Below are positions 2,619 through 17,598 of a DNA stretch of 20,915 nucleotides, piece after piece. The notes under the pieces are model-generated. The model was not told where the DNA came from, did no database searches, and saw nothing but the letters and a program-made list of their open reading frames with translations. The translations under genes and the position numbers were made by a program. The first letter of the stretch is position 1; every line of letters starts with the position of its first letter. The stretch is from Oculatellaceae cyanobacterium bins.114. Lineage in GTDB: Bacteria; Cyanobacteriota; Cyanobacteriia; Elainellales; Elainellaceae. Where the stretch lies: positions 1-20,915 of the forward strand of contig JANRJA010000246.1 in the NCBI GenBank assembly GCA_033764315.1. Direction: 5' to 3'.

Positions 2619-4154
2619 CTATTGGGGGACTTCAGTCACCTCAACGATGCGATCAAATTGAAAATTGTGAGTCCACATTTCTAGCGTTTTTGCCAGGGAA
2701 GCATGGTTTGCCGGAACCTTTTGTAAAAGATGGAGAATTTGTTGGTCAAACCCTTTAACAGCAGCTTGATGCAATTGCATTAACCAGTCATTGGGCATGG
2801 CAGTTTGCAAGGTTTCTTTGGTGAGTGTGTCTGGCTCTAAAATAGTTTGCCCAACAGAGGCTACAAAATGAGACGAGGATTGAGCCACTGCCTGCCGGGA
2901 TGCCACCTGAACTGGCAGATAAACCCACACTCCATTGCTCTGCCCAAGGGAACTCTTGAAAATCACATCGCCCCCCATTAATTGAGCAAATTGACGCACC
3001 AGTAGCAAACTCAGTCCCAGTTCTTGCCCCAACTTTTGATTAGATTCGGTTTGAAAAAATGCTTGCAGTCCCATCTCTAGATCACTTAACGCCACCCTTA
3101 CACCATTCCCTTGGACTTCAAAGACGAGCTTGCAAGTTTCATCGACTGAGAACGAGAGTGGATTTTCGACAGCAACCTTGATGGCGATCGCCCCTGTATC
3201 AGTCGTTTGAATGGCGTTGTCCAACAGATTCATCAAGATCTGCCGAACTTTGCTCTCATCTGCTCGGATGTGCTGAGGCACTTCAGAACTTCGCTGAAAC
3301 TCAAACCGCAAGCCCTTTTTCAGAGCTTTAGATTGCCACAGTGCCACAATGGAGTCTAAAAGATGATGGAAATCAAACTCTTGTTCGTTGAGAGACAGTT
3401 GATGCAGTTCTGCATGGGTAATCGCCAAGATATTGTTGATCAGTTTGAGGAGCCGTTGAGCACTGTCATCAATGGCGGCTAAGGAATCTTGGTGATCTGG
3501 TGTCAAATTGCCCTCTCCTCTCATGAGGGCTGTATATCCCAAAATAATATTGAGAGGCGTGCGTAACTCATGGCTCATTTGAGCTAAAAACTCACTTTTG
3601 ATATAGTTCGCAGCTTCTGCCATATTTTTGGCATCTTGCAGGGAGGCTTCAGTTAAAATGCGGCACTGAATTTCTTCATGTAACGATTGCTCGATTTGTT
3701 TGCGTTCATCAATTTCTTGAAGTAATTGCTTGTTTTGAATAGCTAACTGGTTCTTCAGTTCTTGAATCGTCAGTTGATGCCGAATTCGAGCCAGCACTTC
3801 TTCTGTTTGAAAGGGTTTTGTAATGTAGTCAACCCCGCCCACTTGAAAGGCACTGACAATATTTCTGACATCACTTAAGGCACTCAAAAAAATGATCGGA
3901 ATCTCTTCTGTCTTAGGGTTTTGTTTCAACCGTTGACACACCTCATACCCATCCATTCCCGGCATCCGCACATCTAGTAAAATCAGATCGGGCGGCAAGT
4001 TTTGAATGCTGACAAACGCCATTGAAGCGTTGATCACACAGCGGACGGTATAACCATGAGCCGTCAGAGTTTTCGACAACACACGCAGGTTGTCTGGTGA
4101 ATCATCGATGATGAGAATAGTACCTTTAGGGGGGTTGGCCGACTCAAGGGTCAT
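2619..4154 (-). CDS. REC-HisKA-degenerate HATPase + C-terminal helical module (probable pseudokinase)
   Basis: 511 aa; REC (ILIIDD...LLDVRMP...FLSA...ITKPF); H-box [16 protein letters not shown]-box NLLDNAIQT; G1 reads VQGNGVRV and G2 reads GQELGLS. Start overlaps the upstream stop (ATGA, 4151-4154). Confidence 0.9.
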   Translation of the reverse strand: MTLESANPPKGTILIIDDSPDNLRVLSKTLTAHGYTVRCVINASMAFVSIQNLPPDLILLDVRMPGMDGYEVCQRLKQNPKTEEIPIIFLSALSDVRNIVSAFQVGGVDYITKPFQTEEVLARIRHQLTIQELKNQLAIQNKQLLQEIDERKQIEQSLHEEIQCRILTEASLQDAKNMAEAANYIKSEFLAQMSHELRTPLNIILGYTALMRGEGNLTPDHQDSLAAIDDSAQRLLKLINNILAITHAELHQLSLNEQEFDFHHLLDSIVALWQSKALKKGLRFEFQRSSEVPQHIRADESKVRQILMNLLDNAIQTTDTGAIAIKVAVENPLSFSVDETCKLVFEVQGNGVRVALSDLEMGLQAFFQTESNQKLGQELGLSLLLVRQFAQLMGGDVIFKSSLGQSNGVWVYLPVQVASRQAVAQSSSHFVASVGQTILEPDTLTKETLQTAMPNDWLMQLHQAAVKGFDQQILHLLQKVPANHASLAKTLEMWTHNFQFDRIVEVTEVPQ

Positions 4155-7100
4155 CGTTGGATGGGTTGGGTTAGGGTTAGCAGTTGGTCAAAGCAAAAAT
4201 TGTTAACTAACTCAGTGAGTGTCGTGGCGATCGCTGGATGGCTATCAGGGATTTGATCAATTAGAGCCAATAACTGTTGATCGGAGCCAAGATTAGCGGC
4301 TTGATAAAACTGCTCAAACCACGCGGTTGGCATCAACCCACTCAGCTCAGATTGCACTAATTCCAGGTCTAATGGCTTTACTGGCACCTGTTCAGTGGAT
4401 GGCAAAGGGGTGAATTGAGCGGTGACAAATTGCACTCCTAAATAGTGTTGGATTTTGCTCAATAGCAGATCTTCTCGAAAGGGTTTGCGGACAAAATCAT
4501 TACAGCCTGATGCTAATACTTCTGCCCGATCTTCCTCAAAGGCACTCGCTGTTAGTGCAATGATGACCGTTGAAGATGGAGGATCAGGATCATCGTCCCA
4601 TCGTCCCTGTTGTTCTAATTGTTCTAATACTCGAATTTGTCGAGTGGCTTCATAGCCGTCTAGACCGGGCAAGTGCATATCCATCCAGATGAGATGGGGT
4701 CGCCACTGTTGCCAGAGTGCGATCGCGGCGTTGCCGTCCAAGGCTTCTTGAACGTCAAACCCCAACGACTGTAACAGCGTCACCAACAAGCACCGACTTT
4801 CAACGTGATCCTCTACAACAAGAATTCGATAGGTGGGTTGCCCTGGACCTAAATGGATGGCGGACTGCCTTAATTGGTGCGATCGCGTTGAAACAGAGGC
4901 AACTGGCTGAACTGGAATTTTGATTTTTACGGTGGTGCCAACTCCCACCTGGCTCAAGAGTTCGATTGTGCCTTGCATCAATTGCACAAACTTACGACTG
5001 ATGGGTAGCCCCAACCCCGTGCCCTCAGTGGCGTGAGATCGACTGCGTGACTGCATAAATGGTTCAAACAACAGGGGCAGTTCCTTTGGCTCAATGCCTA
5101 GTCCGGTGTCGCACACCTCGATTTTGAGGAATACGGTGTTCGGTGGATGGGGAAGTGGTTGATTGGGTTGTGTTTCAGGAGTCTCTAAAAGGGGTGTCTG
5201 CAAGGAGTCAGAGGGTAAGCTGAGAGAGGCTGTCTCGGATGGGTCAACCCTCTCAGTTGCGCTCTCTCCCTCTTCTGCATGCTCAACTGACACCCGCAGT
5301 GTGACCGTTCCAACCTGGGTAAACTTGATGGCATTTCCCAACAGATTGACTAGCACCTGGCGTAATTTGCCTTCATCGGTTTGAATGTATCGGGGTGAGT
5401 CTGGTGTTAATTCAACGGCAAGCTGTAACCCTTTAGACTGTGCCCTTAAGTGAAACATTTCCTCCAGACTGATCAGGAGATCCTGTAAGTCAAAATCACT
5501 GGAATTAAATGACTGTTTTCCAGCCTCAATCTTAGACATTTCCAGGACTTCATTAATCAAATCCAAAAGATTTTCGCCACTGCGGTTGATCGTAGCTAAG
5601 TAGTCTCGGACAGAGTCGGTTAATGAGTTCTCTCGCGCAATCACTTGAGTGAAACCCAAAATAACATTGAGTGGAGTGCGTAACTCATGGCTCATATTAG
5701 CCAAAAACTCGCTTTTAGCCCGATTGGCTGATTCGGCGGCATCTCGTGCTTTTTCAAGCTCAACCGATTGCTGTTGAGTTTGGGCAAGCAAGCCTGACAA
5801 AGCATCTTCTGCCTGTTTGCGTTCTAGTTCAGCTCCGGCTCTGGCTGCAAAAATGCGGAGGATTTGCTCAGAGAATGGATATTGGGTCAGAGGTTTGCTA
5901 TCTAGCACCTTTAAGTGCCCAATGACATTTCCTGAGGAGTCATTTAATGGGATGCCAAAATAGCTCTCTATACCCAGTTCTATCAAGTGTTCGTGATCTG
6001 GGAAATGGGTCTGAAGGGAGTCTCGATAGTAAATTATCTCGCCAGCTAAGACTTGTGCGCATGGAGTTCCAACGATTTCATATTCAAAATTCTCACCAAA
6101 TGTATTGCCCTTCCAAAATGCTAGGGTTCGTGCGGTTGTTTTGTCGGGTTTGAGCAATTCGGTGACAAAGGCATACTTCACTTGCAAGATTTCGGCTAGG
6201 TGACGCACTAGCGACAGGAAAAACTCACTCCCTGTTTTAGCCGCTGTTCCTTCAACAATTAATCGCAGTGCTTGCTCCATTTGCTTGCGCTCAGTAATAT
6301 CAGTGGCGACTCCAAGCACTAATGTGGATTGAGCATCGATTGATTTAATCGGTTTTTTAATCGTTTGAAAGAAGCGCGTTTCTCCAGAGGCAGAGGTCAC
6401 ACATTCTTCGATCAGTTTAGGTTGCTGGGTGCTGATGACTTCACGATCGTCTTGCAAAAAATGCTCAATCTCGGCTGAGTTAGGGTTGAAGTCAGCATCA
6501 CTTTTGCCAATCAAATTTTCAACCGTTGTCCCATAAATTTCTGCTACCGCCTGGTTTGCTAACACAAATCTGGCATTCCAATCTTTTGCAAAAATAAGAT
6601 TGGGTGGAGTGTCAATGACGTTGCGGAGAAATTCTTGTTGCCGTTTTAGAGTTTCTTCGATGCGTTTGCGATCGCTAATATCGGTGTCAAGTGTGGTAAC
6701 GATCCAACAATTGGCTGTATCGTCCCATTGGGGAGTGTAGACTTCAGAAATCCAATGAATGGTGCCATCGGCGTGGTAGAAGCGATATTCCACAATGCCA
6801 GACTGTCCTGCAAAGACATCTGTTGTCAGTTTTGCTTGATAGATCTCCAGATCCCTGGGAAAAACATGCAATGCCCAAAAATTGGGGTCGGCTACAAATT
6901 GTTCTAAGGGAAACCCAAATACTCTTTCATACCCGACAGAGCGATACTCCGGACTCCAAGTATGATCTGCAAAAAAACGAATGGAGGCGATCGCGGCATT
7001 CGCACTGTTTAATACGTTACTGAGCTTGGCTTCAGACTGTTTGAGGGCTAGTTTTAGTTGTTGGCTTTTGGCTTCTGTTTGCTCAAGGCTGATAAACTTA

Positions 7101-8449
7101 CCAATGCTCTCAGCCATGAGTTCAATGATTTCTTGCTCATGATGCTCAAACTCAGGCGATCGCGGTTGAGTTGAAAAAAAGCACAGTGTCCCAAACAGGG
7201 CATCATCAACCCAGATAGGAGTTCCTAAATAGGATTCCAGTTTTAAGCTTTGATAAAGTGGGTGATCACACATCTCCGCCATCTGACCCACATGATGAAA
7301 GGCCACCGTCTGTCTCCGTTCCACCACCTTGCCACAGAAGGTATTGCCCAACTCTGTCTTCATTCCAGAGACTAACGACTCTATATCGGACTGAACCTTT
7401 AAGAACGTAAAGGTTTGATCTTGAACTTGTCCGGCTGACCCAGCGGCAAACCCTAAAATCTGACAACCTGTTTGGATGTAGTCTGAAAACAAGTGTTCAA
7501 GGCTATCAAAGTGGGTGACGCTGAGTCGATGCAATTGTTTTAAGCTATGGCCAAACTCAGCCAGTCGTTGAGTCTTTTTCTGTAACTCAGCCTCAGCCAG
7601 TTTGCGATCAGTCAAATCTCGACCTACGCCAATTACCCCTAATACAGTGTTCGTCTCATCCACAAAGGGAGTTCTTAAAATGTCGAGCCAGCGTTGATTG
7701 CGGTGTTGATCTGGCAGACATACCTCATAGCGTTGAAACGTGTATGGTGCTAATGCGGTTGTCGTAACCTCCAGATCAGTCGATGCCCCGACATGTAACA
7801 GGGGATCGGGGTGCCCCATCATGTCTTGCTGAGATTGCCCGATAAATGCTTCAAATGCTCGGTTACAACTCTGGCATGTGCCATCGGGAGCCTGATAAAA
7901 AATCAGATCAGGGATAGAGTTAATTAAACATTGCAAAAATGCCCGTTCACGACTTAATGTATCTTGCAAATTCTGGCGATCGACAATTTCTTGTTGAAGC
8001 CGCTGATTTTGAGCAATTAGTTGGTCTTTTTGTTGATGTAATGCTTGGTTTAAGTGCAACAATTGCAATTGATATTTCACCCTGGCCATGATTTCAGGGG
8101 CTTGAAAGGGTTTGTGAATAAAATCAGCTCCGCCGATTGAAAAAGCTTTGACCTTATCTGCAATTTCGTCGAGGGCACTAATAAAAATTACGGGAATGTG
8201 ACGGGTATGGGGTTGAGCTTTTAGAATTCTACAGATTTCATAGCCATCTATTTGTGGCATCATGATGTCTAGCAGAATTAAGTCAATCGCCTGATTAGAG
8301 GTAACTGTTAATGCAGCGACGCCATCAGAAGCCGTTTGGACATTGCAACCTAATCTAGCCACGATATTGACTAGCAAATCTGAACTCACTTGATTGTCAT
8401 CCACAATCAAGACAGTTGCTTGAGATAGCGAAGCCCATTCTATACTCAT
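4151..8449 (-). CDS. Cytoplasmic multi-sensor hybrid histidine kinase (REC-PAS-GAF-PAS-PAS-GAF-HisKA-HATPase-REC)
   Basis: 1432 aa; N-terminal REC (LLDIMMP), three PAS/PAC ends (DLTDRK, DISDRK, DITERK), two GAF-like regions, H-box [13 protein letters not shown]-box [11 protein letters not shown]1 DTGLGI, G2 GTGLGL, C-terminal REC (IWMDMHLP...VRKPF). No transmembrane segment seen. Confidence 0.95.
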
Positions 8450-8573: not shown

Positions 8574-9650
8574 TCAGTTGTTTAAATGTTTGTCTGAGTA
8601 AAACTTTAATAGTTTAGTAGCAGCGACCTCCGCTATCGGTCTTGAAAAGAAGTAGCCTTGCATACGGTTACACCCTAAAGATTGAAGCGCGATTGAGTCT
8701 TCTGGAGTTTCTACTCCTTCTGCAATAACTTGCAACCCCAGACGAGAAGCGAGCAAAATAATCGTTTCGCTGATATCCCAACGTTTAGATTGAATGAAAG
8801 ACCGATCGATTTTAAGGGCATCAATGGGCAGGTCTTGTAACCGCGCTAGAGAAGAATATCCTGTCCCAAAGTCATCGAGATAGACCTGCAAACCCATGCT
8901 GCGAAATTGTGACAGCAGATAAATGGCAACGTCTTGATTGGCAATTAGCATGGTTTCTGTGATTTCTAGTTTTAAACTACCAGGCGCAATTTTGCTCTCT
9001 TGTAGAATCTGTTGTATCTGTTGTAATAGGTCAGGTTGTAACAGTTGCACCACTGAGAGATTGACACTAATAGAGATGGGAGGAGCACCAGAAAATTGTC
9101 GCTGCCAGTCTGCCAATTGGTAACATGCTTGTTTTAAAGCCCACAACCCCAATTGCTGAATGATGCCAGTGCGCTCTGCCATAGGAATAAACACGGTGGG
9201 AGAGATGTCGCCTTGAGTGGGATGTTGCCAGCGCAATAATGCCTCAAAACTAACGATTCGCTCTGGATTAGTCTCGATGATAGGTTGATAAACTAGCTGA
9301 AATTGTTGTTGATTTAATGCGTGATGTAGGCTGTTTTCGAGTTGAAGCTGTTCAATTTCAGTCGATGAGAGTAGTTTTATTGGTGTTACAGCTGCTTGCT
9401 CAATCGTGTTTGCTAAACGAGTTAACCGATTGGCATTATTTAGAGCGATCGCAATTAGCCGATATCCTTCATCAGACAGATCTCCTAATTGCCCAGTCTG
9501 AAGTAATCCCAAAACACCCTGAATCGAGGTCAATGGAGTTCTTAATTCATGACTGATAAATAAAGTTGGGCTTTCAAATAAGTTTGCCATCATTTCTTTC
9601 AGATTCTGCAATGCGCTGGGAGATAGAGAAGTGGTGTTCTGGAAACTCAT
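8574..9650 (-). CDS. HisKA(DHp)-EAL fusion, probable c-di-GMP phosphodiesterase
   Basis: 358 aa; N-terminal [20 protein letters not shown]...RLTRLAN; EAL domain with YQPI, FEALLRW, ISVNLS, KLEITE, DDFGTGYSSL, LKIDRSF, IAEGVE and QGYFFS motifs. Confidence 0.92.
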   Translation of the reverse strand: MSFQNTTSLSPSALQNLKEMMANLFESPTLFISHELRTPLTSIQGVLGLLQTGQLGDLSDEGYRLIAIALNNANRLTRLANTIEQAAVTPIKLLSSTEIEQLQLENSLHHALNQQQFQLVYQPIIETNPERIVSFEALLRWQHPTQGDISPTVFIPMAERTGIIQQLGLWALKQACYQLADWQRQFSGAPPISISVNLSVVQLLQPDLLQQIQQILQESKIAPGSLKLEITETMLIANQDVAIYLLSQFRSMGLQVYLDDFGTGYSSLARLQDLPIDALKIDRSFIQSKRWDISETIILLASRLGLQVIAEGVETPEDSIALQSLGCNRMQGYFFSRPIAEVAATKLLKFYSDKHLNN

Positions 9651-9879: not shown

Positions 9880-10233
9880 TCATAATGGAAGTCCTTTAGG
9901 AGACTGACCTGTTAAGACAGCATTCAGCGATCGCAAATTTAACCAAACTGAGTAAGTGGCTTTAGAAACGGTTATGCAAACTTGAATCTCACTTAAGGTC
10001 TGTTCGCAAGCGACATCAGACGCTTTTAGGCGATCTTCAATGGGATAAGACTGAAATAATGTGTAAAGTTCAACCCCGTACTGCATTCCAAAACGCAACT
10101 TAACATCCCAATAGGTGAATCTAGAGACCAGGCTCTCATGCACCATAAAGGGCAAATCACCCAGAAGCAATGTTGGTGCTGACTCTACGTCAGGTGTTGA
10201 CTCTACATCAATGGTTGAAGATACAAGGGTCAT
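9880..10233 (-). CDS. Small hypothetical protein (117 aa from ATG 10233; the track's GTG start at 10296 gives 138 aa)
   Basis: Co-oriented with the cluster and fills the gap between receiver and EAL genes. The C-terminal ~75 aa (RFTYW...GMQYGVELY...R..A...CITVS...YSVWLNLR) looks like a folded domain. Start uncertain. Confidence 0.65.
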   Translation of the reverse strand: MTLVSSTIDVESTPDVESAPTLLLGDLPFMVHESLVSRFTYWDVKLRFGMQYGVELYTLFQSYPIEDRLKASDVACEQTLSEIQVCITVSKATYSVWLNLRSLNAVLTGQSPKGLPL

Positions 10234-10390
10234 GTCAGGGATTGAGAACAAGCAATAACTCAATCCTAAAGATGAAATGTGGCATTCCCGTGACAACCTT
10301 TCGGCTCGCCTGCTTCTCTACAGGTATTCCAGCCTAAATCTTGAATCAATTGATGATCTTCGGCACTTGTGTGGGCTTAGCTTGCTCTCA

Positions 10391-10771
10391 CTAAACCGTC
10401 CAATTTAATACTGTTTCAATCTGGTTTCCCAAAACACCGGGATCAAACGGTTTGATTAGAACTGCTTTAGCTCCCAATTCGTCATAGTATTGTTGAGATG
10501 CGACCTGCACCGTTGCAGTTAGCAATAGCACTGGTATATGTTGGGTGGCTGGGTTGAGATGCAAGTCTTTGAGGGTGGTCAACCCATCCATCTCTGGCAT
10601 GATAACGTCGAGCAAAATGGCGTCGGGCTGCTCTGTGACAGCGATCGCAATACCCTCTTTACCGGAGGCGGCTGTCAAAACATCCCACTGTTTTGTAATT
10701 TTGAGACTCATCCTGGCGATCTCGCGAATATCTGCCTCATCATCAATTACTAAAATGCGTTTGATATTCAT
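10391..10771 (-). CDS. Single-domain (CheY-like) response regulator
   Basis: 126 aa; RILVIDDE, PDAILLDVIMPEMDG (phospho-Asp), LLTA and IKPFD are all intact. Confidence 0.95.
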   Translation of the reverse strand: MNIKRILVIDDEADIREIARMSLKITKQWDVLTAASGKEGIAIAVTEQPDAILLDVIMPEMDGLTTLKDLHLNPATQHIPVLLLTATVQVASQQYYDELGAKAVLIKPFDPGVLGNQIETVLNWTV

Positions 10772-10816
10772 AAGATAGATTCAATCCAGAAAAAGGCATC
10801 GCCATCATTCAATCAG

Positions 10817-10834
10817 TATATAGCAGTCCTAAAT
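10817..10834 (+). repeat. Isolated terminus of a TATAGC-N2-TCCTAAAT small repeat element
   Basis: TATATAGCAGTCCTAAAT matches the termini at 12172, 12324 (reverse) and 20868. Confidence 0.55.
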
Positions 10835-10919
10835 TACACCCATTTAAACTGCAAGCCTTGCATATCACCCCACCGCGGCTCAACGGCTCGACTGAGCTTT
10901 GCCGAACGTCCCCTGAGGC

Positions 10920-10949
10920 GATGCGTTACGCTGCGCTAACACATCCTAC
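10920..10949 (-). repeat. REP-like GTAG-palindrome
   Basis: Minus strand reads GTAG-GATGTGTTA-GCGCAGCG-TAACGCATC: a GTAG tetranucleotide followed by an imperfect hairpin, in an intergenic position. Confidence 0.6.
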
Positions 10950-11008
10950 TCAAGCATTCGGAGTTATTAAATCCATGACCCTATACGACTTTAGAAAGAG
11001 TCGAGGGA

Positions 11009-12136
11009 TTAAGACCAGGGCAGTTGCAGTGTAAAACAGGTCATGCGATCGCCACTCGTTACTTGAATTGTGCCACCCATTTGCTTGACCAGTTGCCACA
11101 CTAACGATAATCCTAACCCCGTACCATTGTGTCGCCAGGGGTCATGATTGGGAATACGGTAAAACTTGTCAAAGATGCGAGACCGTTCCTCAGGTGGAAT
11201 CTCAACGCCGGAGTTGCGAATGTGGAGCAGGATGTGTGAGGCATTTGCCTCGCTAGACACCATGATCTCTTGATTGACAGGAGTATATTTCAAGGCATTG
11301 TTCAATAGTTCTGTGACAATGCGGCTCAAACTGTTTACGTCAGTTGTTAACGCTGGCAAATTGGGGGAAAGCTTGACTGTCAACCGTTGGTGGTGGGTTT
11401 GAAACTGAAGTTCATAGGATTCCAGGAGGTGAAGCACCCACTCGTTCAGGTCTAGGGGTACGAGCTTTGGGGGATGAGCACCTGCTTCTAAATGTTGTAG
11501 GTCTAACAGGTCTTGAATCAAACTAATTTCTCGTTCGCACTCCTCCTGTAAAATCTTGAAATATTGCATAATACGGTTGTTTTCGGGTTCAGTTCCCGCC
11601 ACTTGGTCTAGAAAAGTCTGCCCTTGCTCAGTCGCCAACATCAGCAGTTGTAGCACCATACGCATATTGGCAACAGGCGTGCGTAACTCGTGGGAAATAG
11701 TGCTTAAAAAGTCATTTTTAAGCTGATCTAACAAGTCTGACCATTGGCGTTGCTTTTGTTGCAAGATGAGTTGATTATTAATGCGAGCTACCACTTCTCC
11801 AATTTGAAAGGGTTTAGTAATGTAGTCTACCCCACCCATATCAAATGCTTTGATTTTGTCTGACACTTCATCTAAGGCACTTAAAAAAATGATGGGAATC
11901 TCTCGTGTTTGTGGAGCCAGTTTAAGCGCGGTACACACTGTATATCCATCCATTTCAGGCATCAAAATATCTAGCAAGATGAGATCAGGCGGTTGTGCGG
12001 CGATCGCCCTTAAAGCCATTGACCCACTTGGAGCCTGTCTAACCCGATAGCCTTTCCCTTGCAAAATCTTTGAGAGTGCTCGGAGATTGTCTAACTGATC
12101 ATCAATAACCAGGATATTTGCAGTGCTGTTTGACAT
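11009..12136 (-). CDS. REC-HisKA-HATPase hybrid histidine kinase
   Basis: 375 aa; REC (LLDILMP...ITKPF), H-box STISHELRTPV, N-box ELLNNALKY, variant G1 NSGVEI, F-box IFDKFYR, G2 GTGLGL. Confidence 0.93.
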   Translation of the reverse strand: MSNSTANILVIDDQLDNLRALSKILQGKGYRVRQAPSGSMALRAIAAQPPDLILLDILMPEMDGYTVCTALKLAPQTREIPIIFLSALDEVSDKIKAFDMGGVDYITKPFQIGEVVARINNQLILQQKQRQWSDLLDQLKNDFLSTISHELRTPVANMRMVLQLLMLATEQGQTFLDQVAGTEPENNRIMQYFKILQEECEREISLIQDLLDLQHLEAGAHPPKLVPLDLNEWVLHLLESYELQFQTHHQRLTVKLSPNLPALTTDVNSLSRIVTELLNNALKYTPVNQEIMVSSEANASHILLHIRNSGVEIPPEERSRIFDKFYRIPNHDPWRHNGTGLGLSLVWQLVKQMGGTIQVTSGDRMTCFTLQLPWS

Positions 12137-12372: not shown

Positions 12373-15300
12373 CTAACTAGAGGATTGGCTGAGATATATG
12401 ATGATTTCAAAATCATAGTTATAAACCAGTTGCTTTAAATCGTTGATCAGTGCGGTATGGTGGGCTGGAATTTGGTCAATCAAGCTCTCAACCTCCTCAG
12501 AGGAGCAGTTGAGAGCAGTTTTGTAGAGTGCTGCGATCCACTCAGGGGGCATGACTTGAAGTGATTCTGGCTTTAGGGCTTTTCGTCTGTTGCTGGAGCC
12601 GATTTCAACTACATTTGAAGGGGCAGAGTCGGCATACTGGCATTGCAGATCTAGATGGGTGGCCAACTGTTGAAAAATAAGGGTTGTCTTTAGAGGTTTA
12701 GCCATAAAGTCAGTAAACCCAGCGGCAAGAGCGCGATCGCGCTCTTCTTGATAAGCCTGGGCTGTCAACGCAATAATGGGAACGGGTACTGGAGGGACGG
12801 GGTCGTTCTCTGCTATTCTTCCACTCTCCCACATTTTCTGGATGTCTTGCTCTTCTTGTCGAATCTGTTGCATGGCTTCATAGCCATCCATCCCAGCCAT
12901 ACGAATATCCATATAGATCAAATGAGGTCGCCAGTTCTGCCATTGTTGAATGGCTTCAACTCCACTAGCGGCTTCACGCACGTCTAGACCCACCTTGCGT
13001 AAAATGCTCACTAACACTTGTCGATTGGCGATTTGATCGTCTACCACCAAAATACGGAATTGGGATTGACCCAGAAGCAACCCATTGATCGGACGTTCAG
13101 CCGTAATAGAGGCAACTTGATCGGAGTTGCTCAGTTGCACCGGAACCCAAAAACTGAACAGACTGCCTTGACCAACCACACTATGAACTCGCAATGAACC
13201 CTCCATCAACTGCACGAACCGATCGCTGATTGCTAACCCCAGTCCTGTTCCTTCGGTTGAGCATTTACCGGCACTCGCTTGGGAAAATGCTTCAAAAATG
13301 GTGTCCAGTTCATCTGGAGCAATGCCCACCCCTGTATCTTCGACCTCAATGTAAAGGACAGAGGAGGTCGGAGAAAGCAGCGGAAAGAGGGTCTGGTTCG
13401 ATGGGTAATTGTCCGTTCGTTTACCCATCCACTCCCTGACTGGCTCACTCCCCCACTCTCCTGCGTTGACCCGCAACGTAATCATTCCTGCTTCGGTAAA
13501 TTTCACAGCGTTGCTGAGCAAATTGATCAGGATCTGCCGTAGTTTGTTGATATCGGCAACAATCCATTCAGGCAGGTTGGAGGGCATGTCTAGAATCAGG
13601 TTTAGCCCTTTTGAATTAGCCCGCAATTGAAACATTTCCCATAGGGCTGTGATTAAATTGGGTAGATTGAAGCGGTTTTCATTTAAGGTCAACCGTCCTG
13701 CTTCAATCTTGGACAGATCTAACACATCGTTAATCAGCGTTAGCAGGTGTTCACCGCTGCGATGAATCGACCGCAGGTATTCTGGGTATTCCGGCATCAG
13801 GGACAGGTCATAGTTCAACAGTTGGGTATACCCCAAAATCACATTGAGTGGGGTTCGCAGTTCATGGCTCATATTGGCTAGGAAGGCACTTTTTGCTCGG
13901 TTGGCCGCTTCGGCAGCTTCTTTTGCTTGTTGCAGTTCCTGTTCTGCCCGCTTGCGATCGCTGATATCGACGACCCGCACCAGATTAAACCGCTGTTCTC
14001 CAAAGATAATGGGCTTGGCAGAGATATCTCCCCAAAATTCTCGTCCCTGGCGAGTTATATATTCTATTTCCAGGTTCCAGAAGCCCTTTTGGTTAATTTC
14101 TTGTTGAATGGTGGCTAATTCATCAGTCGTAAATTGTCGCTTTTGCAGCGTGTGACCTTCAATATTCATCAAGTCAGCTTTGCTAGCCACCTCAAACATC
14201 TCTATGGCTTGTTGGTTGCAGTCTACTGTCAATAAAGTGTCACCATCGACTAGAAATAAAGCATCATTAGATTTGTCGAAAAGCAGCTCTCGAAAATCGC
14301 GGTTTTTGACGAGTTCCTGTTCTAAATGTTTGCGATCGGTGATATCTCTGGCGGCAGAATAAATTAAGTTGCCGACTGGGTAGGAACGCCATTCAATCCA
14401 GCGGTATGACCCATCGTGGCATCGATAACGGTTGACGAAGTTGGGCAATTCTTGTTGATTGACAAGAATTGCCATCGCGTTTAGAGTGCTCTCTAAATCC
14501 TCTGGATGAACGTAGTCCAGGAATCGGACTCCTTCAAGGTCTTCTAACCGATAGCCGAGGGTTTTTTCCCATTGGGGGTTGAGGCGCAGAAAGTAGCCAT
14601 CGATATTGGCAATGGAGAGCAGATCGAGGGCAACTGAGAAGAAGCGATCTAACTCCTCTGTTTTGGTTTGCAACACCAGTTCTGCCTGTTTGCGATCGTG
14701 AATATTAACAACAACGGCTATATGGGAGAGGATGTGATTGTGATTGTCCTCTTGGGTTAGGGTGGAAATGGTTACTTGGGTCCAAATATAGTGCCCCGCT
14801 TTGTGGCGATAGCGTTTTTCATGCAGAAAAAAGGGAATGTGCTGATTTAGAAATTGTTCGTATGATTGTTGGTGATTGACAATATCTTCAGGGTGAGTCA
14901 GATCCCAGGCTGTTAATTGCAAGAGTTCTGGGTTGGTATAACCCACCATGTCGCAAAACGCCTGATTTGCACTGATAAACTTACCGGATGAGTCCACCTG
15001 ATTAATCCCCACGGCTACCTGATTAAAGATGGCACGATAGCGATTTTCACTCGCTTGTAAGGCGGCTTCGGCTTGTTTGCGATCGGTAATATCTACTGAA
15101 AATGCGGTGACGACCCAACAATGTTGCGCTTCATCCCAGCGGGAATTGTTGGTTTGCGAGATCCAGAGCAGGTTGCCATTTCTATGATAAAAACGATATT
15201 CATAGGTTTTGGTTGTCTCTGCAAAGATGTTGGCAAACAGTTGGGGGGCGATCGCCTGCCAATCGTCGGGTTCAATGCGCTCGATCCAAAGGGTATTGTT

Positions 15301-17598
15301 GAGCGTCAGTTCGTCGGGAGGGTAACCCGATAAGACTTCACACCCTGCAGACACCTGATCAATTTGCCAGGTGTGATCTTGAAAGACTCGCAGACTGGTA
15401 ATCGCCGCACTCGCACTATTTAGAATGTCTCTTGTTTTTGTTTCAGAGCGTTGTAAGGCCGCTTCTAGCCGTTTGCGATCGCTAATATCGATTAAGACTC
15501 CTAATACACAGTCTTGATCGTCTAGACGAATGGTAACTGCGGATAATAAAACTGTCTTTGCCTCGCCTGATTTTGTGCGAAACAAGGCTTCAAAATCACT
15601 GATGTTGCCAAATTGATGCAGCGTTTGTCTAAAGTGCTGCAAATCGTCTAGATCGTCCCATAGCCCCAACTCAACGCAGGTCTTGCCAACTACTTCAGGG
15701 AGAGAATGACCAAGAACCCGACTGAAACTGGTGTTTAGGTTTAAGCAAAGCCCCTCTGCCAGAGTGGCGATCCAAGCAGGTTGGGGGCTGTCTCGAAAAA
15801 TCGTTGAAAACTTAAGTTCAGATTGCCGCAAAGCGGCTTCGGCTTGTTTGCGATCGCTGACATCTAACAAAACCCCATACCAGGTGGTGCTGCCATCGGC
15901 ATGACGCAAGGGACGAGAACTGGATTCTAGCCATTTAAATTGACCAGAGGGAGTGATATTGCGAGTGACAAAGGTAAACGGCTCTAGCGTCTCGGCACTG
16001 TGAGCAATAGCTGCATTGAGGGCAGGGCGATCGTCAGGATGAATCAGATCTAAATCGACGTTGGCATCTGCAATAATTTGCTCTGGTTCCAGTTCCAAAA
16101 TATCTCGGCTACCCAAACTGACGTAGTCAAAGCCGTGGGAGCCATCGGCATACTGAGTATAGGTGTAGATCATACCCGGTACAGCCGCTGCTAGTTGTTG
16201 AAACCGGGCTTCACTCTGGCGGGCGGCTTCTGCTTCGACTTTGCTTTGAAATAGTTGCCGCAGTTGCTCTGCCATCTGGTTAAAGGATTGTGTCAAGCCT
16301 TGCAGTTCTGCGATCGCGCTATTGTTGGGCAACTGTTGCGTCAAATCACCGGCTGCTAATTTTTGACTGGCGCGATTGAGTTGAGCCATGCGAGCCGTAA
16401 AGCGATTAGCAATGGTTAACCCTGAGGCGATCGCGACTCCTAATGTCAGCAGACAGAGTAACCCTGTGGTGCGTGTATTCTGTTGAATTTCGGCTGTGAA
16501 ATCGGACTCTGGAATCGCTGTCACGATTAACCAATCTAATCCGTTGGCGTCGGTGTAGGGAGAGATGGTTAAAAAATAAGGATGACCCTGTAGTGAAAAG
16601 TGGGACGACTGGGGCGATCGCAAGGAGGCAAAATCACCAAAGGTCATCCTCATATACTCATAAGTGTCTTGAAGGGTTTGATTGGATAATTCATCGGGGA
16701 AACGCCGCTGAAAGGTCAGGTTTCCAGGGGCAGTGATTCCGTCTAAGTCAGGTTTGCCCGCTACAGAGTAAGAAACCTCGGTGGTTGAGTTAGCAATCAG
16801 TTGACCGCTGCGTTCAATAATAAAGATTTCCCCCGATCGTCCTACTTCTACATGCTTCAGAGAGTCACTCAGTTGATTGAGGCTAATATTAACTGCAAAG
16901 ACCGCTAATAATTGGTCTTCTTGGTTATACAAGGGAGTGTAAGCATTAAGAGCTAAAAGATTGGTGCTACCGATTTGAAAGGGTTGAGTCCACCCGGATG
17001 TTCGGGTTGCAACGGCTTGACGATACCAGGGGCGATCGCGCACATCAATATTTTCGAGCGTTTCTAAATGACGTCCTAACTCTCCGGACTCATTAACGCC
17101 ATAGGTTTGGTTGATAGCAGGATTAGATGCGGTTGACACAGCCGCTTCAAATGGCAATTCCCAGGGTTGTAACTGCGTCGTTACCCCATAATCTTGAGGG
17201 CTGACATGGTGACTGACCCTCAAATCTCCCTGGGGAGTTCCAACTAAAAGAGTTGTCAGATCTTCTGTTTGTCGATGTTGCAAGATTAAATATCGATGCA
17301 GTTGATCGAGGTTTTGTAGGTCAATGGCTCCTGAGGCGATCGCTGTAATTTGACGCTGATTAAATTCATGAGCACTCTGCAAATAATGGTCAAGCTTTTG
17401 ACAGACTTGTTGTCCTGCATTTTCCAGGAGTTGAGTGGCAATTTTCTCTACTGCCCGCTGCCCACTGCGGTAAGACAGATAGCCGACTACCGCCACGGCT
17501 CCTACCGTTTGCAATACAAAAGGCACCACCAAGACTAGATGTAGTGGAATAGTTGAGCCGAAACGAGCCGGTCGGCGAAAAAATGGGTGGGGTGTCAT
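12373..17598 (-). CDS. Membrane hybrid histidine kinase (TM-Cache-TM-HAMP-6xPAS-HisKA-HATPase-REC)
   Basis: 1741 aa; Cache motif DVRDRPWY, HAMP, six PAS/PAC units ending in DRK, H-box [13 protein letters not shown]-box NLLSNAVKFT, G1 DTGVGI, G2 GTGLGL, REC (IYMDIRM...MAKP). Confidence 0.95.
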   Translation of the reverse strand: MTPHPFFRRPARFGSTIPLHLVLVVPFVLQTVGAVAVVGYLSYRSGQRAVEKIATQLLENAGQQVCQKLDHYLQSAHEFNQRQITAIASGAIDLQNLDQLHRYLILQHRQTEDLTTLLVGTPQGDLRVSHHVSPQDYGVTTQLQPWELPFEAAVSTASNPAINQTYGVNESGELGRHLETLENIDVRDRPWYRQAVATRTSGWTQPFQIGSTNLLALNAYTPLYNQEDQLLAVFAVNISLNQLSDSLKHVEVGRSGEIFIIERSGQLIANSTTEVSYSVAGKPDLDGITAPGNLTFQRRFPDELSNQTLQDTYEYMRMTFGDFASLRSPQSSHFSLQGHPYFLTISPYTDANGLDWLIVTAIPESDFTAEIQQNTRTTGLLCLLTLGVAIASGLTIANRFTARMAQLNRASQKLAAGDLTQQLPNNSAIAELQGLTQSFNQMAEQLRQLFQSKVEAEAARQSEARFQQLAAAVPGMIYTYTQYADGSHGFDYVSLGSRDILELEPEQIIADANVDLDLIHPDDRPALNAAIAHSAETLEPFTFVTRNITPSGQFKWLESSSRPLRHADGSTTWYGVLLDVSDRKQAEAALRQSELKFSTIFRDSPQPAWIATLAEGLCLNLNTSFSRVLGHSLPEVVGKTCVELGLWDDLDDLQHFRQTLHQFGNISDFEALFRTKSGEAKTVLLSAVTIRLDDQDCVLGVLIDISDRKRLEAALQRSETKTRDILNSASAAITSLRVFQDHTWQIDQVSAGCEVLSGYPPDELTLNNTLWIERIEPDDWQAIAPQLFANIFAETTKTYEYRFYHRNGNLLWISQTNNSRWDEAQHCWVVTAFSVDITDRKQAEAALQASENRYRAIFNQVAVGINQVDSSGKFISANQAFCDMVGYTNPELLQLTAWDLTHPEDIVNHQQSYEQFLNQHIPFFLHEKRYRHKAGHYIWTQVTISTLTQEDNHNHILSHIAVVVNIHDRKQAELVLQTKTEELDRFFSVALDLLSIANIDGYFLRLNPQWEKTLGYRLEDLEGVRFLDYVHPEDLESTLNAMAILVNQQELPNFVNRYRCHDGSYRWIEWRSYPVGNLIYSAARDITDRKHLEQELVKNRDFRELLFDKSNDALFLVDGDTLLTVDCNQQAIEMFEVASKADLMNIEGHTLQKRQFTTDELATIQQEINQKGFWNLEIEYITRQGREFWGDISAKPIIFGEQRFNLVRVVDISDRKRAEQELQQAKEAAEAANRAKSAFLANMSHELRTPLNVILGYTQLLNYDLSLMPEYPEYLRSIHRSGEHLLTLINDVLDLSKIEAGRLTLNENRFNLPNLITALWEMFQLRANSKGLNLILDMPSNLPEWIVADINKLRQILINLLSNAVKFTEAGMITLRVNAGEWGSEPVREWMGKRTDNYPSNQTLFPLLSPTSSVLYIEVEDTGVGIAPDELDTIFEAFSQASAGKCSTEGTGLGLAISDRFVQLMEGSLRVHSVVGQGSLFSFWVPVQLSNSDQVASITAERPINGLLLGQSQFRILVVDDQIANRQVLVSILRKVGLDVREAASGVEAIQQWQNWRPHLIYMDIRMAGMDGYEAMQQIRQEEQDIQKMWESGRIAENDPVPPVPVPIIALTAQAYQEERDRALAAGFTDFMAKPLKTTLIFQQLATHLDLQCQYADSAPSNVVEIGSSNRRKALKPESLQVMPPEWIAALYKTALNCSSEEVESLIDQIPAHHTALINDLKQLVYNYDFEIIIYLSQSSS

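Follow-up and report, generated by a model that had tools for sequence, protein, structure and literature searches.

A histidine-kinase dimerization hairpin fused to an EAL domain recurs in filamentous cyanobacteria beside a single-domain receiver, its possible docking partner

A 20,915 nt stretch of an Oculatellaceae cyanobacterium genome (hereafter the window, meaning the whole stretch that was analysed) encodes a protein in which the dimerization and histidine phosphotransfer (DHp) hairpin of histidine kinases is joined directly to an EAL domain, the domain of cyclic di-GMP (c-di-GMP) phosphodiesterases. We found that this DHp-EAL architecture recurs in filamentous cyanobacteria, that a gene for a free, single-domain receiver is its usual neighbour, and that its DHp resembles those of kinases directly followed by such receivers. 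As the architecture is recurrent, the receiver partner conserved and the DHp subtype matching, docking of the receiver on the DHp is the best-supported reading of how the enzyme might be controlled. That docking, rather than phosphorylation of the histidine, is the common switch on EAL activity appears quite possible, although we stop short of calling it probable.

The DHp-EAL gene was taken as an ATG-start open reading frame (ORF) of 358 aa (Table 1); in the protein collection the gene is called from Met20 instead, giving 339 aa. HisKA (PF00512) matched residues 32–83 with 43.8 bits (cutoff 26.9; E 2.7e-11; profile positions 9–57 of 66), and EAL (PF00563) matched residues 106–338 with 243.9 bits (cutoff 31.3; E 1.8e-72; profile positions 2–236 of 236). 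No Pfam match to GGDEF, receiver (REC; Response_reg) or HATPase_c was found in the 358 aa protein at E ≤ 0.01, nor did Pfam place any sensor domain ahead of the DHp. Having no HATPase_c, the protein is not a histidine kinase and would be unable to autophosphorylate; having no receiver in the polypeptide, it is not a REC-EAL regulator either. The first domain does possess what defines a HisKA-type DHp, namely a profile match above the cutoff, a helical hairpin and an H-box histidine. An AlphaFold2 model built with 134 family sequences (mean pLDDT 88.5, pTM 0.78; hairpin pLDDT 79–84) runs from the two hairpin helices through an 8-residue linker (88–95) and a further helix (96–111) into the EAL barrel. 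Its closest structures are EAL domains, those of BifA (8arv; TM by target 0.93, rmsd 1.4), MorA and TBD1265, and RocR is both a sequence and a structural match; no chain among the structural matches listed joins a DHp with an EAL domain.

The EAL domain contains the patterns E-A-L-x-R, N (in SVNLS), E-x-T-E (as EITE), DDFGTGYSS (loop 6), K-I-D (in KIDRSF), E-G-V-E and Q-G-Y, and residues E136, N197, E232, D259, K280, E311 and E314 are invariant across the 134 family sequences. Judged against what we take to be the catalytic and metal-binding residues of EAL domains, together with the loop-6 motif DFG(T/A)GYSS, the protein is predicted to be a cytoplasmic c-di-GMP phosphodiesterase and an ordinary member of the active EAL class. 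A first-pass annotation of the window had described an H-box hairpin with its His codon at 9549-9551, a short linker and an EAL domain with its catalytic motifs, in a protein without GGDEF, REC or HATPase domains, and had placed a stand-alone receiver nearby. Pfam, AlphaFold2 and the motif patterns bear out each of these points, the receiver being real by its Response_reg match (80.5 bits).

The same annotation had allowed that the fusion might prove to be a one-off, which it is not. HisKA and EAL occur together in 118 of the 120 best clusters (90 % identity), the remaining two being N-terminally short gene calls; the clusters span 305–464 aa, and every organism named is a filamentous cyanobacterium. 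When 1.84 billion representatives were scanned, a match in one stretch over DHp and EAL was obtained for 17 clusters at 50 % identity (341–415 aa), whilst an ESM Atlas cluster of 110 members, most commonly from Cyanobacteriota, carries EAL in 100 % and HisKA in 95 %. Full-length DHp-EAL proteins were found in 14 of 401 genomes of a phylum-wide cyanobacterial sample, and in 43 of 391 genomes (30 of 165 genera) of a class-wide sample. The distribution is patchy, as seen from a complete genome of the same genus (G621) that gave no match. A broken kinase or a chance fusion, tried as explanations of the ORF, were ruled out by this family conservation. Database labels of members read 'EAL domain-containing protein', 'histidine kinase' or 'bifunctional diguanylate cyclase/phosphodiesterase', of which 'histidine kinase' is a misnomer. 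One genome (G503) carries three DHp-EAL genes on a single contig (C68; L138 and L139), two of them in tandem (L139:8845-9945 and 9978-11069) with one upstream receiver common to both.

Other searches returned related but different proteins. Among longer fused forms (628–2000 aa, query region 1–135), all 38 matches were HisKA kinases, 37 of them with HATPase_c and none with EAL, although this search is itself rated weak evidence. A search of genome contigs with the window protein alone yielded three loci, none with the full-length architecture. Metagenomes searched with an alignment across the DHp-EAL junction gave at least 79 loci, of which the 14 best-covering were ordinary kinases or GGDEF-EAL proteins and none DHp-EAL; being the best 14 among the matches listed, they say little about DHp-EAL in metagenomes.

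To describe the genomic context we used 52 DHp-EAL genes in 51 loci of 50 genomes, with 8–10 kb on each side (L, G and C numbers denote loci, genomes and contigs; L150, in which the gene is cut by a contig end, was excluded). Proteins of at most 175 aa matching the window's receiver by blastp at E ≤ 1e-30 (53–79 % identity) were counted as its orthologues, and one lies inside the fetched flank of 40 of the 52 relatives. The co-occurrence check proposed in the first-pass annotation thus identifies the single receiver as a conserved genomic partner. It stands upstream on the same strand in 28 cases, the others being convergent or divergent, and is found within 500 bp in 18 and within 3.5 kb in 35, so that the linkage is kept across co-directional, convergent and divergent arrangements. 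In L037 the receiver and DHp-EAL genes are an isolated pair, their neighbours being housekeeping genes (cobW, VTT, pyridine-nucleotide oxidoreductase and inositol phosphatase). The pocket residues D10, D11, D55, T85 and K107 are invariant in the 12 linked receivers aligned. Receivers of this type (E ≤ 1e-32) occur in 81 of the 401 genomes, comprising all 14 with DHp-EAL and 67 of the 387 others, with one to five per genome among the matches listed, and such sparseness makes chance adjacency to DHp-EAL unlikely. Six of the 12 loci that have no orthologue possess flanks that end at contig ends (L132, L134, L140, L144, L151 and L152). In the three receivers convergent with DHp-EAL, K-L-I replaces the usual K-P-F after the conserved lysine (Table 1).

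Away from DHp-EAL, this receiver type typically follows a sensor kinase, often together with an RcaC-like REC-Trans_reg_C-Hpt-REC protein. RcaC-like proteins, several ending in GGDEF, also adjoin DHp-EAL in L035, L036, L040, L041, L042 and L045, which suggests one phosphorelay feeding both c-di-GMP synthesis and breakdown; L043 has an RcaC-similar protein with no Hpt match. Large RcaC-like proteins with the order REC-Trans_reg_C-Hpt-REC-REC-GGDEF, and so a diguanylate cyclase output, are encoded at L035:6174-8600, L036:1982-4387, L041:11183-13549, L042:6639-9017, L051:3855-6185 and L175:16514-19360.

The DHp itself points in the same direction as the genomic linkage. Using 62-residue segments anchored on the H-box, we found 14 DHp-EAL hairpins to share a mean identity of 44 % (range 27–58 %) with five kinases, chosen by eye, that are directly followed by a small receiver (L040–L042, L048 and L052), as against 20 % (range 10–32 %) with 13 other kinases of the same loci; among themselves the DHp-EAL hairpins average 47 %. 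The contrast is greatest in the loop and helix 2 (38 % versus 8.5 %). By this comparison the DHp of DHp-EAL is assigned to the subtype of kinases directly followed by such receivers. It is also 50–63 % identical, over approximately 53 residues, to the DHps of canonical kinases of the PAS/GAF class, from which it differs in lacking HATPase_c. Within the genome from which the window comes, the nearest DHps are encoded on contigs other than that of the window (C113, C25, C142, C112, C241 and C123).

Complex prediction was run with two copies of DHp residues 15–105 and the receiver, each with its own alignment. The three runs gave ipSAE values of 0.44, 0.42 and 0.39 (0.42 taken as the score), compared with 0.02, 0.00 and 0.00 for the controls, which corresponds to a verdict of 'weak support'; the pass mark is reached by 116 of 157 solved complexes and by two of 215 mismatched pairs. 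At least 75 % of contacts were common to the runs, with a partner pLDDT of at least 78. For the two DHp copies, whose homodimer would be a four-helix bundle, the prediction returned no interface. Complex modelling had been proposed in the first-pass annotation, and its outcome, with the score set against a best control of 0.02, favours docking weakly. The sequence matches of the receiver include PDB entry 3dge, which we take to be a kinase/regulator complex.

Between the receiver and DHp-EAL genes of the window lies a small gene, X, which the first-pass annotation had overlooked. Homologues of X occur in 27 of the 52 DHp-EAL loci, in 20 of them upstream, on the same strand and within 900 bp, and the window's order of receiver, X and DHp-EAL is found again in 11 loci; just three of the 52 genes lack both the receiver and X in their vicinity. 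Residues F60, W63, R89, A92, Y115 and W118 are invariant in an alignment of 28 X sequences. The window copy had no Pfam match at E ≤ 1 (stray matches appeared in at most two of the 28 members), and no PDB sequence match better than E 0.12. AlphaFold2 predicts a core (residues ~50–129, pLDDT ~97) of four strands, a helix, a hairpin and a helix, for which Foldseek found no PDB match at E ≤ 0.001; in a wide VIA search the best Z was 5.5 (protein-kinase N-lobes, rmsd 2.8–3.3 over 65–74 residues), below the noise range of 7–8. A profile search placed the family in 132 of 391 genomes, with up to 11 copies each. Of seven paralogues in five loci (L171–L175), two precede sensor kinases on the upstream side and one is transcribed divergently from an RcaC-like GGDEF protein; three more adjoin a receiver, a ComFB gene and a DUF2252 gene, respectively, and the last is found among an integrase and a transposase. 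X points to a widespread, uncharacterized small protein family associated with two-component genes, and our guess would be that X is a partner of DHp-bearing proteins.

The single-domain receiver, X and DHp-EAL belong to a conserved cyanobacterial module in which the input of the enzyme is a kinase-type DHp hairpin that has lost its catalytic and ATP-binding (CA) domain. In the mechanism that we propose, the receiver would be phosphorylated by sensor kinases of the same DHp subtype, encoded elsewhere, and would dock on the presumed four-helix bundle of the DHp where regulators usually contact their kinases. Docking would alter this bundle and, by way of helix 2 and the 8-residue linker, shift the mutual position of the two EAL domains, a geometry that would set the rate of c-di-GMP hydrolysis. 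This would follow the logic of DivL and DivK, where the core of a kinase has been put to new use in sensing a phosphorylated receiver; in DHp-EAL that core would be coupled straight to an enzyme. In members that bear the histidine, such as the window protein, the receiver may also pass phosphate back to His34 or be dephosphorylated, but as an accessory at most and not as the common denominator of the family. The more far-reaching claim is of a three-part signalling module new to c-di-GMP biology, in which a CA-less DHp is a docking sensor for a free phosphorylated receiver driving an EAL domain, X is a third component binding DHp proteins, and the family records how, in evolution, phosphotransfer (His) gave way to docking alone (Tyr, Gln, Arg or Asp); this, taken whole, we regard as somewhat unlikely.

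The state of the phosphoacceptor position bears directly on these proposals. Across the 120 best clusters the His34 column holds His in 113, Tyr in three, Gln in two and a gap in two; the 17 representatives at 50 % identity have 13 His, two Tyr, one Gln and one Phe, and the 52 genomic relatives 44 His, five Tyr, one Gln, one Arg and one Asp. The receiver is still in the flank for six of the eight His-less genes. E35, R37, A69, R75 and L76 are invariant in the 134 sequences, and T38, P39 and L40 are conserved in at least 90 %, such that the flank of the H-box is more conserved than the histidine itself. Further along helix 1, T41, S42, I43, G45, L47, L49 and L50 are near-invariant, and these positions past the histidine presumably form the regulator-contact face. 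The first-pass annotation had asked of the histidine that it be conserved. It is present in the window protein, which in this respect differs from DivL with its His-to-Tyr replacement, and in most relatives, but its replacement in eight of the 52 relatives and four of the 17 representatives means that the family lacks the phosphorylatable histidine throughout that would mark a Spo0B/ChpT-like protein.

A sister family extends this picture. On another contig of the same genome (C113 of G000), L047:5279-7027 (+) encodes a DHp with Tyr at the phosphoacceptor position, then a degenerate GGDEF domain in which no GG(D/E)EF motif is matched, and lastly an EAL domain that is intact. The gene sits 105 bp downstream of a GAF-PAS-PAS-HisKA-HATPase kinase, the two DHps being 59 % identical, and no receiver was found in the 9 kb stretch examined around it. 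With 14 clusters (549–574 aa) this copy makes up a DHp-GGDEF-EAL family of 15 members, all 15 with Tyr in an H-box reading S-Y-E-L-R-(T/A)-P-L; a query with the DHp-GGDEF part (residues 1–320 of the own-genome paralogue) gave a full-length match only in G000 among the 401 genomes.

Of the two switches named in the first-pass annotation, His phosphorylation and docking of the receiver, these replacements weaken the former, whilst architecture, linkage and DHp subtype argue for the latter. Spo0B and ChpT are DHp-type bundles without ATP-dependent autophosphorylation that exchange phosphate with receivers, and by analogy the receiver might return its phosphate to His34, with phospho-histidine switching the EAL domain. 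His34 does lie in a complete H-box and is found in 113 of 118 close clusters, linked receivers are phospho-competent, the neighbourhoods are multi-step phosphorelays with Hpt-bearing RcaC-like proteins, and real kinases have DHps that reach 63 % identity to this one. We nevertheless consider such phosphotransfer improbable as the switch, given that the histidine was replaced repeatedly and independently (by Y, Q, R, D and F) whilst fold, H-box flank and receiver linkage stayed, that there is no CA domain to load it, and that, as described in passages of PMC4211667, the DivL core works without phosphorylation. A similar degree of doubt attaches to the notion that the DHp is a constitutive dimerization handle, with the receiver and X mere neighbours in a two-component cluster. 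EAL enzymes act as dimers, the window is packed with unrelated two-component genes, 12 of 52 loci have no receiver within the fetched flank and no sensor domain precedes the DHp, all of which would suit a handle. A mere coiled coil, however, would not be expected to keep E35, R37, T38, P39, L40, T41, S42 and G45 on the H-box face, nor the DHp subtype of receiver-partnered kinases, and the receiver linkage survives rearrangement, also outside two-component clusters (L037).

Heterodimerization of the DHp with that of same-subtype sensor kinases, in the manner of RetS and GacS, would instead let the sensor state of the kinase, or its CA domain acting in trans, control the EAL domain. The DHps are as similar to such kinases as to each other (see above), a same-subtype kinase is the direct neighbour in L040–L042, and the sister gene lies close behind a kinase with a 59 % identical DHp in a stretch with no receiver found. 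Most DHp-EAL loci, the window included, have a receiver and no kinase of the matching subtype, and we hold this arrangement to be very unlikely. The flow of information could also run in reverse, binding or turnover of c-di-GMP in the EAL domain making the DHp a phosphatase or sink for receiver phosphate and so providing feedback on the phosphorelay. In HisKA kinases the E-x-x-T motif next to the histidine is associated with phosphatase activity, and in DHp-EAL this motif is conserved (of the 118 sequences with the column, all 118 have E35 and 116 have T38); the DHp domain of EnvZ alone can dephosphorylate its regulator, and RcaC-like proteins with GGDEF outputs occur in the same loci. On the other hand, the EAL domain has retained its catalytic motif patterns, which fits an enzyme better than a sensor, and DivL, with the same Tyr substitution, has no phosphatase activity according to passages of PMC4211667, so that this too seems highly improbable.

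A number of observations weigh against docking of the receiver as the common switch. A model of docking alone does not account for the histidine that 44 of 52 relatives still possess. An orthologue of the receiver is missing from 12 of 52 flanks, and in six of these loci (L034, L038, L142, L143, L167 and L168) approximately 8–9 kb is available on each side. Furthermore, the receiver family is wider than DHp-EAL, with several paralogues per genome, and in G080 the closest orthologue (70 % identity) is encoded next to a phytochrome kinase on a different contig. The subtype assignment depends on receiver-followed kinases that were selected by eye; DHps of other types are found in two kinases that adjoin receiver paralogues (10.7 % identity in L049 and 20 % in the phytochrome of L051), and the window's own kinases match the DHp only at E 1e-4, none being of the matching subtype. 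The score of 0.42 falls in a range, 0.60 or under, in which only 18 of the 157 solved complexes pass but both passing mismatches do, and since kinase/regulator complexes have already been solved, it may reflect memory or likeness. Finally, the counts of relatives include related genomes and are not independent samples.

All large ORFs of the window between positions 3 and 17598 are on the minus strand, and all apart from the small ORF X are two-component genes (Table 1). The ORF at 700-2544 is a second CA-less DHp protein; its last ~70 residues look, by eye, like the C-terminal tails that follow REC in both hybrid kinases, and it may be a hybrid kinase that lost its CA and REC domains by internal deletion. 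These tails (~60–100 residues) are alike by eye, have no Pfam match, and are possibly a degenerate Hpt-like module.

Table 1. Features of the window and of linked loci discussed in the text
Feature	Coordinates	Strand	Remarks
DHp-EAL gene	8574..9650	−	ATG-start ORF, 358 aa; Pfam HisKA + EAL
DHp helical hairpin	9390..9569	−	Residues 28-87: helix 1 = 28-51 (bears H-box), loop = 52-59, helix 2 = 60-87; AlphaFold2 secondary structure and HisKA match
His34 codon (CAT)	9549..9551	−	Canonical phosphoacceptor position, within S-H-E-L-R-T-P-L
EAL domain	8637..9335	−	Residues 106-338; Pfam, motif patterns and structural matches
Single-domain receiver	10391-10771	−	126 aa; pocket D10, D11, D55, T85, K107 intact
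Small ORF X	9880-10296	−	Between receiver and DHp-EAL
Gene X	9880..10233	−	~117 aa; likely start ATG at 10233 = Met22 of ORF
dCache-HAMP-PAS-HisKA-HATPase-REC hybrid kinase	12373-17598	−	First in transcription order
Post-REC tail of this hybrid kinase	approx. 12373-12650	−	No Pfam match
REC-HisKA-HATPase	11009-12136	−	Second in transcription order
Second hybrid kinase	4151-8449	−	Directly after DHp-EAL in transcription order
Post-REC tail of second hybrid kinase	approx. 4151-4400	−	No Pfam match
REC-HisKA-HATPase	2619-4154	−	After second hybrid kinase
dCache-HAMP-HisKA protein	700-2544	−	614 aa; no HATPase_c match (Pfam)
REC-HisKA protein	3-707	−	Runs off window; overlaps 700-2544 ORF by 8 nt
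K-L-I receiver	L035:8976-9374		Convergent with DHp-EAL
K-L-I receiver	L036:4590-4988		Convergent with DHp-EAL
K-L-I receiver	L039:9084-9458		Convergent with DHp-EAL

Amongst known systems, we infer that DHp-EAL would work most like the DivL-DivK pair of Caulobacter crescentus. In passages of PMC4211667, DivL has Tyr at the phosphoacceptor position, binds phosphorylated DivK via its regulator-docking face, and is neither kinase nor phosphatase. The likeness lies in a kinase DHp that serves as the input for a single-domain receiver, as predicted here, with a histidine that is dispensable in DivL and replaced by Tyr in five of the 52 relatives and throughout the sister family. Unlike DHp-EAL, DivL still has CA and PAS domains and its target is another kinase, CckA, whereas here an enzyme replaces the CA domain, PAS is absent and the window protein retains its histidine. 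Spo0B and ChpT differ in that a CA-like domain persists in them in degenerate form, an enzymatic output is absent and the histidine, lost from DHp-EAL in eight of 52 relatives, is essential.

Response regulators of the PvrR, RocR and VieA type place EAL domains in REC-EAL and REC-GGDEF-EAL proteins. They share with DHp-EAL an EAL phosphodiesterase of the same active class and, as proposed here, control by two-component phosphorylation, but in them the receiver is fused to the enzyme, whilst in DHp-EAL the receiver is a separate protein and it is the kinase's side of the interface that is joined to the enzyme. A cyanobacterial comparison of the REC/EAL two-component-controlled type is CdgSHA of Anabaena, as presented in part of its description (bioRxiv 10.64898/2026.09.11.750938). 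In the Rca phosphorelay, comprising the kinase RcaE, the single-domain RcaF and the complex regulator RcaC, small receivers shuttle between kinase and regulator, according to passages of PMC4752607. Proteins of the RcaC order, several with GGDEF output, recur beside the DHp-EAL module; those passages describe no EAL or CA-less DHp component, however, and the likeness of our receiver to RcaF is one of type. Supplementary tables aside, we found no published description of a DHp-EAL or HisKA-EAL architecture in the passages of the literature covered, and main-text passages of c-di-GMP censuses and cyanobacterial surveys (PMC1183210, PMC2853384, PMC8846402, PMC13075795, PMC7063779, PMC3747582 and bioRxiv 2021.11.05.467447) are without DHp-EAL. 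DivL was the only studied example of a path from phosphotransfer to pure docking found in the literature searches.

To our knowledge, two-component control of c-di-GMP enzymes is known almost only via receiver domains fused to the enzyme. With the kinase-side half on the enzyme instead, several outputs could respond to one free receiver, the phosphodiesterase amongst them and, in relatives, the neighbouring Hpt and GGDEF proteins. If docking is indeed the switch, c-di-GMP hydrolysis would offer a simple enzymatic read-out of a receiver bending a DHp bundle, and the labels 'histidine kinase' and 'bifunctional diguanylate cyclase/phosphodiesterase' would be corrected for the DHp-EAL family. The 'reverse' signalling of DivL would then be a reusable design rather than an alphaproteobacterial oddity.

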